The notes beneath the pieces were generated by a model. The model was not told where the DNA came from and searched no databases. It saw nothing but the letters and a program-made list of their open reading frames with translations. A DNA stretch of 39,066 nt from Deltaproteobacteria bacterium (GTDB taxonomy: Bacteria > UBA10199 > SPLOWO2-01-44-7), in contig JACQMB010000091.1 in NCBI GenBank assembly GCA_016203765.1, positions 1 through 39,066 of the forward strand, in the 5' to 3' direction. The translations under genes and the position numbers were made by a program. Shown here in pieces: positions 7,682 through 36,449 of this stretch; position 1 is the stretch's first letter; the number at the start of each line of letters is the position of its first letter.

Positions 7682-7744
7682 TGTGTTTATGTGTTTATGT
7701 GCCTATGTGTTTATGAGACATAAACACATGAACACATGAACACA
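7682..7744. repeat. Inverted pair of octamer arrays (TGTGTTTA x4, then CATRAACA x3)
   Basis: Fills the whole actB-actC intergenic gap; the halves are reverse complements. Confidence 0.9.
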
Positions 7745-7745
7745 G

Positions 7746-10673
7746 TCATTTATTCCTCACTTTGGTCAAATAAGTAATCGCCGGTCCCACATTTAAATCC
7801 TCCAGAACGTGATAGCCGCGCGGGCCTTTCTTTAACTGTGACACTTTGGATTCCGGATCGTTCATGTCGCCAAAAACGATCGCGTCGGCCGGACAGCTCT
7901 GCTGACAGGCCGTCTTGATTTCCCCATCCCTCACCTTCCTGCCAAAATCCTTGGCCTTGTCCTTCCCCTCCTGAATCCGCTGGACGCAAAAAGTGCATTT
8001 TTCCATCACCCCTTTTTCGCGCACGGTCACGTCGGGATTGAGGACCATGGCCAGGGGGCTCTTCTCCTTCCAGAGATATTCAAACCAATTAAACCGCCTC
8101 ACCTTGTAGGGACAATTGTTCGAACAATACCGAGTGCCGACACAGCGGTTGTAGACTTGGACGTTCAACCCCTCTTCGTTATGAAGCGTGGCCAGCGTGG
8201 GACAGACCGTCTCGCACGGGGCGTTTTCGCAATGCTGGCAGAGCATCGGCTGGGAGGTGACGTCGGGATTGTTTTCATCGCCCGAATAGTAACGGTCAAT
8301 CCGAATCCAATGCATCTCGCGGCCCTGCTTGACCCTCTCTTCCCCGACCACGGGAATGTTGTTTTCAGCCTGACAGGCAATCATGCAGGCACTGCAACCG
8401 GTGCAAGCGTTCAGATCGATCGCCATCCCCCAGCGGTGCCCTTCATATTTATGTCCGGACCACATGCTGGGGAGAGGGATTACCTCCTCGTTGCCGGCCT
8501 TCGGATTTTTTTGATACTCGGCAAAAGTCGTCTCCTTAATAATCGGCCGTCCATAAACCTGAAAATGCTGTTGGGTGGTGGGGAGTTTCATCCACTGGCC
8601 GGTTTTTTCGATTGTGACCGGCAAAACGGGGGCGGCAAAGGCAAAGGCGTTGGCGCCGAGGTTGTTGCCTACCTGCCCCGCCGCCGTCCGGCCGAAACCC
8701 AAAGGCACGGCGGCCACATCCTCATGCAAGCCGGGTTGAATATAAATGGGAAGTTCGACGGTCGTCCCGTCGTCGGTTTTGAGTTTAACAATATCCCCCT
8801 CTTTCAATTTTTCGGCCTTGGCCTTTTCGGGGGCAAGGGCCACGTAATTTCGCCAGGTCATCTTGGTGACCGGGTCGGGGAGCTCCTTGAGCCAGCCGTT
8901 GTTGGCCGACCGGCCGTCGTAGGCGGGGAGGGTGGGGTAAGTGACCAAGAGGGGACCAGGGACCAGGGACCAGGGACCAGGGACCTTAAGAGTTGGCAAA
9001 ATATTTGTATTAAATTTCCGAAGAGAATATGTGTTTGCCGATCTTCTGGAATCAAAAATGCCATCGCGCAAAACCGTTTCCCAGAAGGTTTGAAAGGAGG
9101 AGGTTAAACCAAATTTCTTGTAAATATTTTCATTCCAATAATTTTTCAAATATTCGTACCATAGTTGTTGGTCCCTGGTCCCTGGTCCCTGGTCCCTGGT
9201 CCATTTCAATAAGCTCTCCTGAAATGCCCTGGTGTTAAACAACGGAGCCACCGCCGGCTGGCGCAGGCTGAGGAGCCCTTCAATCGGTTCGGCGTCCCCC
9301 CAGTTTTCCAGATAATGATGGTCCGGCAGAACCCAGCCGGCCTTCAAGGCGGTCTCATCGACTCGGTCGGCAAAGCTGAGGGTGTGAGGAACTTTGGCCG
9401 CCGCCTCTTCAAAACCGGCGCCCTTGGGAAGCGTGTAGGCCGGATTCGCCTTGTATATCAAAAGACAATCCACGCGCCCCTCTTTCATTTCCCGAATCAA
9501 ATTTTTCAAATCGCTCGTAGCGCGGTTGTTTTGGTGCGAGGGGGTTCCAAACTCAATCGTTTCTCCCTCATTTTCAAAAAGATGATTTAAATGATTGGCC
9601 GCGACGTGCAAGGCTACACCAATTTCCCCTTTCAGGGAATATCCCCCTCCCAGGATCAGCGATTCGCCGCGATGTTTTTGAAGGTCCGCGGCCAGACGGC
9701 GCAGGATGGAAAGGTCAATCCCCGTTTCGGCGGCCGCTTTTTCCATCGGGTATTCCCCCGCCAGTCCCAGCGCGATCTTGATTTCATTGCCGGGCCGAAC
9801 CGGAATATGCAGATCGGCGTTGGAGCCGGTCACGGTGGGATAACTTTCAAAAACAACCAGACGGTTCATCATCCCATCGTGCAGATTGCGGCGCTGAGAA
9901 AATTGTTTGGTAAATTCCACCGGCGAAAGCCAGGTGCCCAAAAAATCGGCTCCAAAAGAAACGATCAACTTGGCCTTGTCGAAACGGTAATGGGGAATGA
10001 AGGCCTCGCCATAGCTTAAACGATTCGCCTCGCGCAATTCTTCCAAAGCAAGGGGTTCATAAACGATCTGCCTGGCATTGGGAAATTGGCTTAAAAATTC
10101 GTCGATCACTTTTTGGGTGGCTGGGCTTTCGATATGGCCGGTCAGAAGGCGAAGAGCGCCGCTCTTTTCTTTTACCTCTTTTAAAATGGCCGCCATCGAT
10201 TGATCCACTTCCTCCCAGGAGACGGCTTCCCAGGATGGACTACGGACTACGGACCGCGCCGTGCCCTGAGCTTGTCGAAGGGGACTACGGACCGGTCCCC
10301 GCAGGCGGTCAGGATCGTAAAGATTCAACAGCGAAGCCTGCCCGCGGGCGCACAATCCGCCCTGATTCATCGGGTGATCGGGGTTTCCCTCCAGCTTGAT
10401 GGGACGACCCTCCCGGACCTTGGCCAGCATCCCGCAAGCGGCGGGGCACTCCCCGCAGGTGGTGGCGTACCAGTTGGCCACACCCGGTGTTACCTCTTCC
10501 GGTTTGTTCAGATAGGGAACGATTTTTTCCACGGGGCGGCGGGCGCACCCGGCCGCCGAGGCCATCGCCAACGCCGCCCCCATCAACTTAAGGAATTCCC
10601 GGCGATCGACCCCTTCGGGACGTTCATCCTGCCCCTGCTCAAACTCCGGATGTTTCCAGTGCTTTTCACTCAT
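7746..10673 (-). CDS. actB: Alternative complex III subunit ActB (molybdopterin-oxidoreductase-like domain fused to a 4Fe-4S domain)
   Basis: Tat signal DRREFLK; REGRPIKLEGNPDHP; CTGCSACMIAC, CQHCENAPCETVCP, CVGTRYCSNNCP, KCTFC...CQQSCP. Confidence 0.96.
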   Translation of the reverse strand: MSEKHWKHPEFEQGQDERPEGVDRREFLKLMGAALAMASAAGCARRPVEKIVPYLNKPEEVTPGVANWYATTCGECPAACGMLAKVREGRPIKLEGNPDHPMNQGGLCARGQASLLNLYDPDRLRGPVRSPLRQAQGTARSVVRSPSWEAVSWEEVDQSMAAILKEVKEKSGALRLLTGHIESPATQKVIDEFLSQFPNARQIVYEPLALEELREANRLSYGEAFIPHYRFDKAKLIVSFGADFLGTWLSPVEFTKQFSQRRNLHDGMMNRLVVFESYPTVTGSNADLHIPVRPGNEIKIALGLAGEYPMEKAAAETGIDLSILRRLAADLQKHRGESLILGGGYSLKGEIGVALHVAANHLNHLFENEGETIEFGTPSHQNNRATSDLKNLIREMKEGRVDCLLIYKANPAYTLPKGAGFEEAAAKVPHTLSFADRVDETALKAGWVLPDHHYLENWGDAEPIEGLLSLRQPAVAPLFNTRAFQESLLKWTRDQGPGTRDQQLWYEYLKNYWNENIYKKFGLTSSFQTFWETVLRDGIFDSRRSANTYSLRKFNTNILPTLKVPGPWSLVPGPLLVTYPTLPAYDGRSANNGWLKELPDPVTKMTWRNYVALAPEKAKAEKLKEGDIVKLKTDDGTTVELPIYIQPGLHEDVAAVPLGFGRTAAGQVGNNLGANAFAFAAPVLPVTIEKTGQWMKLPTTQQHFQVYGRPIIKETTFAEYQKNPKAGNEEVIPLPSMWSGHKYEGHRWGMAIDLNACTGCSACMIACQAENNIPVVGEERVKQGREMHWIRIDRYYSGDENNPDVTSQPMLCQHCENAPCETVCPTLATLHNEEGLNVQVYNRCVGTRYCSNNCPYKVRRFNWFEYLWKEKSPLAMVLNPDVTVREKGVMEKCTFCVQRIQEGKDKAKDFGRKVRDGEIKTACQQSCPADAIVFGDMNDPESKVSQLKKGPRGYHVLEDLNVGPAITYLTKVRNK
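8952..8986. repeat. Heptamer array GGGACCA x5 inside actB
   Basis: Read directly; encodes KVPGPWSLVPGP. Confidence 0.95.
9169..9203. repeat. Heptamer array TGGTCCC x5 inside actB, inverted relative to 8952-8986
   Basis: Read directly; encodes WTRDQGPGTRDQ. Confidence 0.95.
10237..10295. repeat. GGACTAC heptamers interrupted by the REP-like motif CCCTGAGCTTGTCGAAGGG, inside actB
   Basis: Read directly; encodes VRSPLRQAQGTARSVVRSP. Confidence 0.8.
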
Positions 10674-12582: not shown

Positions 12583-15500
12583 TCACTGAATCCGCAACAC
12601 CGCCTCCGGTCCTTGGGCCAGGGGGGAGCTCTTCAGGGCGGCGAGGATTTTTGTGGCCCCCGTCCCCCACGCCTTCGTGACGGCGTATCTTCCGCCGCCC
12701 AAATCGCTGATCCGGAGCTTGGCGTAGTTCCGGGCTTGATTTTTCTCTCCCACCGCCAGCGGCGAGGGGTTGACAAGACTTCCGTCGGCGTGCACTTGCA
12801 TCTGCCAGATGATTTCGGAGGGTCTTTGGCCTTTCTCTTCGGCCACGGTTTGAAACATCGCCTCAATGTCGCTCGGCTCCATTGTGGAAAGATCGTCTGT
12901 GCGCAAAGCCCTCAAACCGATCCAGCCGTCGGCGCGGATGGTCAAAACCTCCTTCAGCCCCTCCGCTCTTCTCAAACCCTCCACCACATTTTTGGCCCCC
13001 GTCCCCCGTGCTTTCGTGACGGCGTATCTCCCGCCGCCCAAATCGCTGATCCGGAGCTTGGCGTAGCCGTAGCCCTTATTTTCCTCCCCCACCGCCAACG
13101 GCGAGGGGTTGACAAGACTTCCGTCGGCTTGCACCAGCGTCTGCCAGATGATCTCGGAGGGTCTTTGGCCTTTCTCTTCGGCCGCGGCTTGAAACATCGC
13201 CTCGATGTCGCCCGTCTCCATTGTGGAGAGATCGTCTTTATGCAAAGCCCTCAAACCGATCCAGCCGTCACTGCGGATGGTCAAAACCTCCTTCAGTCCC
13301 TCCGATCTTCTCAAACCCTCCACCACATTTCTGGCCCTCGTCCCCCGCGCCTTCGTGACGGCGTATCTTCCGCCTCCCAAATCGCTGATCTGGATTTTGG
13401 CGTAGTTTGTGGATTGATTTTCCTCCCCCACCGCCAGCGACGAGGGGTTGCTAAGACTTCCGTCGGCTTGCACCAGCGTCTGCCAGATGATCTCGGAGGG
13501 TCTTTGGCCTTTCTCTTTGGCCACGGCTTGAAACATCGCCTCGATGTCGCCCGTCTCCATTGTGAAAAGATCGTCTTTGCGCAAAGCCCTCAAACCGATC
13601 CAGCCGTCACTGCGGATGGTCAAAACCTCCTTCAGCCCCTCCGCTCTTCTCAAACCCTCCACCACATTTTTGGCCCCCGTCCCCCGTGCTTTCGTGACGG
13701 CGTATCTCCCGCCGCCCAAATCGCCGATCCGGAGCTTGGCGTAGTCCCGGGATTGATTTTCTTCCCCCACCGCCAGCGGCGAGGGGTTGCTAAGACTTCC
13801 GTCGGCTTGCACTCGCGTCTGCCAGATGATCTCGGAGGGTCTTTGGCCTTTTTCCCCGGCCACCAGATCAAAAAGAGTCTCCAAATCGGCCGGAGCGGTC
13901 TGGTCCAACGCATCCAGACGCCCTGGCCTGAAATAGTCACCCAAAATGCGCCTCCCCAGATGACGCTCCACATATTTTTTGCCAACCAGATTCCCCAAAG
14001 CCTTAAAGAAATTTCTCCGGACCCCCGGATTTTCGGGGGAAACCCCCTCTTCCAAATAGCGCCTCAAGGTTTCAGTCTTAATGCCGGAAACGGCTCCCAA
14101 CATCCCTCCGTATCTCCGAATCACCATGTAGCGAGCCGCCTTGAGAAGGGCCTGTTCATTGTCGGGAAGATGTTGCGGCATCGGATGCCGCGTCTCGTAA
14201 TAGCGAAGACGATCCAGCGCCCAGGCGTGCAAAAGAAAACCGGACTCTCTTGAATCCAGCCCCAGGGCCTCCGCCAGTCTCTCCACCGTCAGTCTCGCGT
14301 TGGGGACAAACCGCCCGGCCAGAAGGTCTTCCGACAACTCCTGCGAATATCCCAAACCAAACGCGATCGCGCCGGCATTGGGAACGGGGGACAATTGCCT
14401 CAAATAACGCCCCAAATTTTCCCCCGCCGCCTCCCCAAACAGGTCAATCGTTAATACATCGGTATCCTTTAATACCTCCCTCCCGCCGCGGGGGCCTGCG
14501 GGACGAGCGGATTTCAAAGGAGATCCCCTTTTAATCTCGCCGGCCTCCAAAATATAAACGCTCGGATCAAAGGCGGTCAGGCCCGGATGACGAAAAAACA
14601 TCCCGGCCAAATCGACAAACAGGGGGGCGCTTTGGGCCCCCAGATGCGCCCCCACCGACTGGAGGGCGTAGCGCAAGCCCCCGGCTCGCTCCACCCCGGC
14701 AAAAATCACCGCGGCTAGGGGGTCGCTTTGAAACTCGTCCACCCCTTCCACCAGCGCTTCCACGTGGATCACAATCGGGCGGACCCCCAAGACAAAATCG
14801 CGCCAGTCCAGATCCCGCCTCGCCTCGATTTCGGGATCGCCCGATATCACCAGGGCCGCCCGGTCCCGATAACGCCCCTCGGCTTGCAAACGGGCGGCCA
14901 AGGCCATGGCTTCCTCACGGCTCCCGGCGTAGACCGCCATCCTCGGTATTTTTTCCTCCCGGCTCAGTTCTCTATCCAGCTGAACGATGGTTTCTTCTAA
15001 ATGCTCCACCCTCTCGACCAAACCCAACTCCCCCCACGCCTCATGCACCGGCTTGTCCGTCGCCAAAGGTTTGGGCAGATAGACCCTTGTCTCCGGTTTG
15101 ATCACCAGTCCCTGTTTGAGAAGGGAGGGAAGGTCCTCCGAAAAAATCAGCCCCTTGGCCCCGCCGTAAATGCCGGCCGCCCCTTCCGCGACCGACTCGG
15201 TCAGGCCCAACAAAAATTGCCCCTCGACCTTTTGAATCTGAAAATCGGGACTCAAAAATCCCCCCTCCACCAGGACGCGAATGAACCGGCTCCGGTCTTT
15301 GTCCTCCGGGTCATCCTCGATCGGACGAACATGATGCTCCTTGTCCAAGATCACCACTCCCGCCCTGGCAAGCGCCCCGCGCAAGTCCGGCCCCTCCATC
15401 CGGCTCAACTCATGAATCGAGGCCAGGCGGATTTTAATCCCGTCCCTCTCGAAAATCGCTTGTTCTTTGTCTTGAATCGTTTCGCCCGTCAGACGGGAAA

Positions 15501-16158: not shown

Positions 16159-17966
<1,808 letters not shown>

Positions 17967-36343: not shown

Positions 36344-36350
36344 TGTTTTT

Positions 36351-36449
36351 GGACCATGGACCACGGACCAAGGACCACGAACCTGTTTCCCCTCTTCAGT
36401 CCGTAGTCCGCAGTCCGTAGTCCGTAGTCCCTCTTTAGTCCGTAGTCCC
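36351..36449. repeat. Inverted pair of heptamer arrays (GGACCAN x4, then AGTCCGT x5 + 2) between rplN and rplX
   Basis: Read directly; fills almost the whole intergenic gap. Confidence 0.93.

Follow-up and report, generated by a model that had tools for sequence, protein, structure and literature searches.

Why is a 61-codon segment of one gene the most AT-rich part of 39 kb of bacterial DNA, and why do two facing tandem-repeat arrays mark its exact borders? The question is raised by actB, the gene for subunit B of alternative complex III, in contig JACQMB010000091.1 of a Deltaproteobacteria bacterium (assembly GCA_016203765.1), the whole 39,066 nt of which we analyzed and refer to as the window. 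The gene occupies positions 7746..10673 on the minus strand. Its 975-aa product carries Pfam domains PF00384, PF04879 and PF01568 together with 4Fe-4S domains, and matches PDB entries 6lod_B (E = 3.4e-206, residues 45-974) and 6btm_B ('Alternative Complex III subunit B'); a molybdopterin-oxidoreductase-like domain fused to a 4Fe-4S domain and full-length similarity to a solved ActB place it in this class. We consider it probable that two members of a dispersed family of GGAC-type heptanucleotide arrays, lying in frame, have overwritten two ActB loops and face each other around a native AT-rich segment, and that the stem they can form is a by-product that actB tolerates rather than a switch or a diversifier.

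Both arrays and the interior between them share one open frame on the minus strand. Array 1 (9169..9202, minus strand) reads (GGGACCA)x4.9 on the sense strand of actB, begins on a conserved Trp codon (TGG ACC) and contributes the peptide TRDQGPGTRDQ to variable loop 1, whereas array 2 (8952..8985, plus strand) is (GGGACCA)x4.9 antisense to actB and contributes VPGPWSLVPGP to variable loop 2. On the forward strand, Tandem Repeats Finder (TRF) lists them as GGGACCA x4.9 and TGGTCCC x4.9, each with 100% matches. The arms of the resulting inverted repeat (8953-8985 and 9170-9202) measure 33 nt, are 100% complementary and have 184 nt between them. A preliminary description of this locus, which had counted five units on either side, a stem of about 34 bp and some 182 bp at about 33% GC between the arrays, in an open frame with a genuine ActB peptide, agrees well with these values and with the computed 183 nt at GC 0.328, below that of the flanks, in a 975-aa frame whose segment aligns to the ActB of 39 homologues.

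The 33-nt stem is far beyond chance. The minimum free energy of the stem region as RNA is -118.3 kcal/mol, as compared with -69.6 +/- 4.4 kcal/mol for shuffled sequences (0/200 shuffles as good; z = -11), and as DNA it folds at -58.8 versus -29.1 +/- 3.3 for shuffles (z = -9); the interior on its own is not unusual as a structured RNA (z = -1.5). Weak palindromy nevertheless continues beyond the arrays, with 33/91 same-register matches in the interior versus 25.5 +/- 4.1 expected. Counted from its inner end, each array is followed at +15 to +22 by the 8-mer AATATTTG (8998-9007 and 9147-9155; P = 0.003 for a run of 8), and because this distance is equal on the two sides, the palindrome can be said to run on weakly into the coding interior. 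A predicted antisense open reading frame (ORF) of 69 codons (9029-9238, plus strand) starts inside the interior, 6 nt past a GAAGAG motif, and crosses array 1.

The interior itself (8986..9168, minus strand; 61 codons, QLWYEYLKNYW...FWETVLRDGIF...NILPTLK) contains A61 C28 G32 T62, with a GC content at third codon positions (GC3) of 0.37, and composition breaks sharply at both arrays. No other 183-nt interval of the window has a lower GC content, the minimum starting exactly at 8986 (mean 0.550, sd 0.053). In the genome from which the window derives (G000; 1.47 Mb in 157 contigs, GC 53.8%, 68% complete), only 0.04% of 35,868 60-codon windows in long ORFs have a GC content of 0.334 or less. Outside the segment, actB has GC 0.561 and GC3 0.657, as compared with 0.333 and 0.367 inside it. 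From the segment's own amino acids and the codon usage of actB, GC 0.432 and GC3 0.617 would be expected; roughly half of the drop in GC therefore reflects amino-acid composition, and the rest codon choice.

Is the segment native to the gene? In an alignment of 40 ActB sequences it is conserved in 39/39 homologues, through a W-x-x-Y-L-K-x-x-W ... F-W-E ... G-V block, and both array positions fall in length-variable places that are gaps relative to the solved ActB of Roseiflexus; array 2 brings no net gain in length over orthologues. The nearest homologue is P0002 everywhere, at 70% identity overall, 60% in the interior, and 61.5% and 67.7% in the 200 residues to its left and right. No second copy of the interior was found in the genome, its other matches there being 25 nt or shorter. 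These comparisons show the interior to be, as far as homologues can tell, vertically inherited ActB. Since interior and flanks share their nearest homologue, the foreign-allele segment entertained in the preliminary description is rejected at the available resolution. A miniature inverted-repeat transposable element (MITE) or other in-frame palindromic mobile element was also discarded as a candidate, as the interior is not repeated elsewhere in the genome and aligns to the ActB of 39 homologues; the template repeat of a diversity-generating retroelement, which would be a second interior copy in the genome, was not found either, a reverse transcriptase not having been searched for.

The distribution of arrays among relatives permits the composition of the segment to be compared with and without them. 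Of the 40 aligned sequences, two have heptad peptides at both sites: P0001, which is the ActB of the window, and P0002, where they read TTDNGQRTTDQKQ and VHSPQSIVHSP. In G005, actB has (GGACCAW)x5 at the first site and (GGTACCA)x3.7 at the second; both sites lack arrays in G001 and G002, and in G003 the first is occupied by a different, GC-rich insert. Interior GC3 is 0.367 in G000, 0.403 in G001, 0.355 in G002, 0.424 in G003 and 0.475 in G005, and overall GC3 is 0.44-0.58 in the relatives versus 0.64 in G000. The interior is thus a family-wide low-GC3 island, equally low in the array-free relatives and conspicuous in G000, where GC3 is higher. Total GC behaves differently, at 0.333 in G000 versus 0.435-0.486 in the array-free orthologues. 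The proportions of FYMINK and GARP residues in the segment are 0.40/0.13 in P0001 and 0.37/0.18 in P0002, as compared with a mean of 0.22/0.31 in 39 homologues, and the segment-minus-rest differences in P0001 (+0.17/-0.16) contrast with +0.004 +/- 0.049 and +0.010 +/- 0.054 in the homologues. An amino-acid-level shift towards AT beyond the family norm is, in this alignment, real. Equal AT-richness in array-free orthologues, which the preliminary description had named, together with a phylogeny matching that of the flanks, as a refuting result for its proposals, thus occurs for GC3, and does not occur for total GC or for amino acids.

The arrays themselves are ordinary for this genome. Among perfect arrays of at least three units in G000, 63 have period 7 and 22 have period 4, while each of the periods 5, 6 and 8-12 is represented 0-2 times, and 332/1077 TRF rows have period 7. 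A unit containing GGAC or GTCC is found in 156 TRF arrays spread over many contigs (units GGACTAC, GGACCGT, GGGACCA, GGACCAC, GGACCAT and GGGACTA), most of them with 4.6-5 units or about 33 nt. Stop-to-stop ORFs of 150 codons or more contain the majority (109/156), and the host genes include prmC, metG (three arrays), purL, proS, leuS, carB, rnr, pheS, murD, lysA, atpG and dnaG, showing that the family sits in many housekeeping genes. It is also restricted by lineage: matches to a four-unit pattern number 240 in G000, 150 in G005, 101 in G004, 8 in G002, 1 in G001 and 0 in G003, although the latter belongs to the same genus as G005, and among 35 genomes from other families of the class there are none in 34 and one in the remaining genome. 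Period, copy number, restriction and the convergent pairs described below are those of a dispersed heptanucleotide family.

How such arrays fit into conserved proteins was examined in 11 genes that hold 13 array sites between them. Around these sites G000 has a local length of 40-44 residues, not above that of most array-free orthologues, and in leuS, carB and purL it is below that of the orthologues. Arrays recur in the same loops of G004 and G005, at times with another unit or in the opposite orientation; in loop B of prmC, the array is antisense in G000 and G005, and array-like sequence, as read from the peptides, is in sense orientation in G002 and G004. Judged from these alignments, arrays overwrite length-variable loops. 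In actB, they begin on sequence that is native in relatives, namely TGG-ACN (Trp-Thr) in loop 1 and K-[VI]-P-G, read GTC-CCT-GG, in loop 2. Some of the same protein loops in G003 hold another insert family, reading ...GHGEPVEP....

The DNA around the arrays carries a polar footprint. With all arrays oriented to read GGAC and the 5' and 3' sides defined on that strand, raw GC on the 3' side climbs from 0.40 (0-30 nt) through 0.47 (30-60 nt) and 0.51 (60-90 nt) back to 0.55 by about 240 nt, whereas on the 5' side it dips to 0.50 in the first 15 nt only; the same 3' depression is seen at 101 solo arrays. Within genes, observed-minus-expected GC3 on the 3' side amounts to -0.146 +/- 0.023 at 0-30 nt, -0.097 at 30-60 nt, -0.074 at 60-90 nt, -0.055 at 90-120 nt and -0.036 at 210-240 nt, as compared with about 0 to +0.04 on the 5' side, and it persists when actB and prmC are excluded. 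The depression appears for 31 sense and 18 antisense arrays alike, so that the footprint follows the array and not the gene. The GC3 shift is negative in 37/48 arrays (p = 4.8e-6, Wilcoxon) and 32/43 genes (p = 3.6e-5), with the actB array at 8952 the most extreme of the 48, and the raw-GC shift is negative in 97/129 arrays (p = 2e-11), with little difference in size between unit families. Third positions of the GGAC strand are enriched in G (+0.16) and depleted of C (-0.15 to -0.17) in the 60 nt 5' of the array. What third positions lose in the shift is mostly coding-strand C, with sense as with antisense arrays. In G000, then, synonymous sites lean towards AT for roughly 200 nt on the 3' side of these arrays, independently of gene strand. 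The 3' shift is unrelated to percent match, copy number or G-tracts. G-quadruplexes were rejected as its cause, the shift being equal for GGG-rich and GG-only units and uncorrelated with percent match or copy number.

As the two arrays of actB point at each other, the interior lies 3' of both. Doubling the mean shift of a solo array over 0-180 nt gives about -0.16, as compared with -0.236 for the interior over 57 codons, and with a sampling error of about 0.06 the two values are compatible. The preliminary description had asked whether DNA between inverted array pairs is AT-shifted genome-wide: the shift is indeed genome-wide, and extends to solo arrays, where it lies on the 3' side. Its suggestion that the loop of the stem is locally mutated towards AT survives in so far as the AT shift is real, and fails as a simple loop effect, since solo arrays show the 3' shift as well.

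Part of the footprint may precede the arrays. At 12 arrays in 11 genes, the down-minus-up asymmetry in GC3 is about -0.12 in G000 and already about -0.05 in array-free orthologues (negative at 10/12 sites), so that some of it predates the arrays, or arrays prefer such places. A codon-by-codon comparison of G000 with the array-poor G001-G003, normalized per gene, gave a GC3 lower by 0.070 +/- 0.018 in G000 over the 60 codons downstream, versus a difference of +0.019 +/- 0.024 upstream (n = 11 sites, p = 0.049), indicating that another part is specific to the array-bearing lineage. The corresponding difference at first and second codon positions (GC12) is -0.034 downstream and +0.005 upstream (p = 0.12), driven by actB (-0.18). 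Together, these data suggest that site preference and array-driven bias both contribute to the shadow.

Convergence is a common arrangement in G000. Neighbouring array pairs no more than 600 nt apart are convergent in 18/29 cases, divergent in 4 and direct in 7, and many of the convergent pairs enclose loops of just 9-47 nt. Their arms are on the whole no more alike than those of random pairs (mean best identity 0.83 in 13 convergent pairs versus 0.82), except for two pairs, both placed around native coding sequence, in which the arms are near-identical: actB (1.00, 183-nt interior) and prmC (0.97, 171-nt interior). Random array pairs reach an identity of 0.97 in 2.1% of trials, and on account of this rarity the arms in actB and prmC were probably made, or kept alike, by copying between them. 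The second case lies in a prmC/hemK-like gene (contig C80, L064, 864-1102), where a sense array of GGGACCA type is followed by 171 nt of the gene's own sequence and then by an antisense array; the interior has GC 0.43 as compared with 0.57 in the flanks, and a rare GGACAAG unit occupies the same position in both arms. The motif TATTTGAA occurs at +17 from the sense array of prmC. Elsewhere in the window, at 36350-36430, a convergent pair of TGGACCA x4 and AGTCCGT x4.7 is separated by a gap of 20 nt; as its units differ, the arms of the hairpin are imperfect.

We therefore propose the following account of the locus. Arrays would have grown, or been copied, onto GGWCC-containing loop seeds (probably TGG-ACC in loop 1 and GTC-CCT-GG in loop 2), and these native seeds would have set the opposite orientations of the two actB arrays, whose arms were then probably kept identical by copying between them. 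The AT-richness of the interior would be a sum of three terms: an abundance of the residues Y, K, N and F, the pre-existing low-GC3 island, and the double 3' shadow of the convergent arrays. The shadow could reflect a tendency of arrays to settle or persist beside AT-rich DNA, or a bias that they impose on mutation or repair to their 3' side. Several points weigh against this account. The shift in GC12 in actB (-0.18 versus orthologues) is far above that at the other 10 sites (-0.06 to +0.02), so that an additive shadow is not a full explanation; the actB of G005, with arrays at both sites, has no marked interior shift; and in the small samples from relatives, the dip extends over 0-30 nt only in G005 (11 arrays) and is absent in G004 (9 arrays). 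As only actB and prmC have near-identical arms, these two may form a special class. In addition, synonymous sites are saturated at 60-75% protein identity and the direction of change is unpolarized, the ORF set is a stop-to-stop one rather than curated gene calls, and the arrays of P0002 are deduced from its peptide only, searches of genome and metagenome contigs having returned no DNA for it.

A stronger version of the array-driven term can be advanced tentatively, as a proposition that we hold to be improbable though worth stating: GGAC-type arrays might be polar cis-acting elements that lower GC on their 3' side, either by making mutation or repair there favour AT or by obstructing a process that raises GC, for instance biased gene conversion, so that a convergent pair would fence a short AT-drifting, faster-evolving island of an essential gene, down to its amino acids. 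If true, this would amount to a repeat-delimited mutational micro-domain inside genes. Mutagenesis by the arrays or their hairpin could, in a related way, be the main cause at actB, with the stem extruding, or the arrays stalling forks or repair in a polar manner, so that the intervening DNA is exposed or undergoes AT-biased repair, while the interior drifts towards AT and its amino acids change. The largest G000-specific drops are those of the pairs with near-identical arms (actB GC3 -0.161 and GC12 -0.183; prmC GC3 -0.168), and the departure of P0001 and P0002 from the FYMINK/GARP norm, the exact coincidence of the interior with the GC minimum of the window, its matched A and T counts, as expected if both strands are affected, and the weak palindromy with AATATTTG at both arrays all point in the same direction. 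Yet interior GC3 is equally low in three array-free orthologues, solo arrays have the same 3' shift, the shift does not follow array perfection, copy number or G-tracts, and G005 has arrays at both sites without it; moreover, coding-strand C is lost for both array orientations, which is not a clean deamination signature, and the two cases are few, with P0001 and P0002 possibly representing a single event. We regard mutagenesis as the main cause as possible but rather unlikely. Recombination of a foreign or divergent actB allele, with the arrays marking its junctions, is far less plausible still and can practically be set aside: the break in composition is sharp at both arrays, and 33-nt arrays could conceivably serve as short recombination substrates, but the shared nearest homologue, the low interior GC3 common to the family and the absence of a donor copy from the genome all argue for a native segment.

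The remaining explanations bear on what the perfect inverted repeat might do, and here the evidence comes from assembled Logan contigs, which drop rare variants; four groundwater runs of one study carry the stretch, none of them RNA. In the contigs of these runs we found no indels or inverted joints, and no evidence of inversion, excision or allelic diversity, which is a weak negative with such data; the contigs stop at the arrays, and in runs X1, X3 and X4 the interior has no contig. The repeat-delimited diversification mechanism envisaged in the preliminary description finds no evidence in them, nor, with the same weakness, do the inversion and excision that it had allowed for. A joint in run X4 that skips 183 nt was considered as a deletion and dismissed; it has 10 other letters between its sides, one of which is 29 nt long, and is read as another short-loop array pair. 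An invertible or phase-variable switch, either an inverton or heptamer slippage turning ActB off and on, would have a possible recombination substrate in the perfect 33-bp repeat, and a gain or loss of one 7-nt unit would shift the frame. Inversion of the interior keeps its length and introduces two stop codons, the first at residue 503, and would therefore only break ActB. The same layout in the housekeeping gene prmC, the arrays in many essential genes, the contigs of a 4-8% divergent strain, visible in run X4, that end inside arrays at the same two places in actB, and, weakly, the lack of indels make such a switch very unlikely. No more credible is an assembly chimera, in which a piece between identical repeats would come from a lower-GC relative in the same metagenome. 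Arrays do break assemblies: several G000 contigs end in arrays, Logan contigs stop at both actB arrays, and none of the listed contigs bridges either array with at least 31 letters on both sides. The interior, however, stays in frame and aligns with ActB at every position, one run has a 196-nt contig identical to 8985-9180 at a depth of 5.1 versus 4.5-4.7 for the flanking contigs (a weak argument), and a donor would have to carry matching arrays at both of these sites. A role of the stem-loop in actB mRNA, where it might, for example, be cut by RNase III or cause translation to pause, would be compatible with a tolerated by-product and is less improbable than these, although we still consider it unlikely. 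In its favour are the 33-bp perfect helix predicted in the sense RNA (z = -11) and the many sense arrays just upstream of ribosome-binding sites and starts, suggesting that some arrays act in RNA; against it, the compositional asymmetry tracks array rather than gene orientation, most convergent pairs have mismatched arms, and the interior alone is not unusually structured.

To our knowledge, heptanucleotide arrays have been without an explanation of their origin and effects since they were first described. Intragenic invertons, MITEs and palindromic elements of the Rickettsia type also place inverted repeats inside genes with the frame preserved; the actB interior differs from these in being native and single-copy, and in that its inverted form is closed by stops. 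Cyanobacterial short tandemly repeated repetitive (STRR) sequences reportedly combine tandem heptamers with a nested dispersed element of about 20-25 nt. A comparable arrangement exists here, in another phylum and with other sequences: the 19-nt element CCTTCGACAAGCTCAGGGC has 15 matches genome-wide at up to 3 mismatches, 13/15 with heptamer units on both sides and in either array orientation. One of these is inside actB, where a third in-frame insert (10237..10296, minus strand; TRF row 10237-10254) has CCTTCGACAAGCTCAGGGC nested between GTCCGTA units, reads ...RSPLRQAQGTARSVVRSPS... in the peptide and is a gap in the alignment to 6lod_B.

Closer parallels are found in three papers, as far as their available parts describe them. 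Geobacter metallireducens has elements of four tandem heptanucleotides (GGGACCG, consensus GGACCGG) between and inside genes (Aklujkar 2009, PMC2700814), with an almost identical GGACC-type unit and about four units per element; G000 differs in its higher density (156 in 1.47 Mb), its several unit variants and the overwriting of loops in housekeeping proteins. The GGGAATC and GGGGAYT heptamers of Xanthomonas and Nostoc are genome-wide, prefer about four units, conserve the repeat type between species and include 70-75 convergent opposite-strand pairs that could form stem-loops (Rehm 2015, PMC4692102). They resemble the G000 arrays in their genome-wide spread, length preference and convergent pairs, whereas in G000 about 70% of arrays are in long ORFs, native coding DNA of 171-183 nt lies between the arms in actB and prmC, and G-quadruplex potential does not explain the effect. 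In Beggiatoaceae, TAACTGA arrays of 2-6 units lie just upstream of starts, encode stops in the forward orientation and are rare inside proteins (MacGregor 2015, PMC4679880); many G000 arrays are likewise upstream of starts, but the commonest G000 units have at least one orientation that stays open (for GGGACCA, GGACCGT, GGACCAC, GGACCAT and GGACTAC this was checked by hand) and the arrays lie inside long open frames.

An array-oriented footprint is not mentioned in the available parts of Rehm 2015, MacGregor 2015 or Aklujkar 2009, no literature search having been aimed at it. While dispersed heptamer arrays of about four units and their convergent pairs were already known, the present analysis adds this footprint, strand-independent and array-oriented, with enrichment in G over the 60 nt 5' of the array and a shift towards AT reaching about 200 nt 3' of it, together with two near-identical-arm pairs that fence native, AT-shifted coding DNA. 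If the footprint is caused by the arrays, these modify mutation or repair locally; if arrays select such sites, it describes their target; either way it provides a handle on how arrays spread. For annotation, the locus carries a warning that sharp, repeat-bounded composition islands inside genes need not be foreign DNA.

Further observations concern the array family. On their 5' side arrays are flanked by purine-rich sequence, in many cases ending in ...GAAGAG, and on their 3' side by A-rich sequence. Many arrays lie in sense orientation some tens of nucleotides upstream of a Shine-Dalgarno-like motif and ATG, a placement that hints at a possible role in mRNA leaders. Array orientation shows no link to local GC skew (p = 0.31) and, when compared with the majority gene strand, a weak trend (60 to 41). 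An IS200/RAYT-type transposase (PF01797) was considered and rejected; it is present in 5/6 family genomes, and its presence in the array-free G003 means that it is uncorrelated with arrays. Contig C92, the longest in G000 (145 kb), has only one GGAC-type array, as compared with about one per 9 kb on other contigs; either arrays break the assembly elsewhere, or C92 is of different origin. In metG, encoding methionyl-tRNA synthetase (contig C34, L065, 1115-1515), three array-like peptides occur in frame, GTTDYGLRTTD, RGPWTVDQGLGT and TAGPRSAVHGPRS, of which TRF lists the first and third.

Within the window, three arrays (ATGGACC x5, TGGACCG x7.9 and CCACGGA x4.7) share a single 604-codon open frame at 17272-17526. 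Between actB and the next ORF, at 7683-7745, a hairpin has arms made of tandem 8-nt units, (GTGTTTAT)x4.8 followed by a short loop and CATAAACA/CATGAACA units, and a motif resembling these units, 'gacataaacacata', follows arrays on contigs C38 and C119. A search of the window against Rfam returned a single match, a tRNA. At 12650-13863 lies a large tandem repeat with a period of 339 nt, in 3.6 copies with 90% matches.

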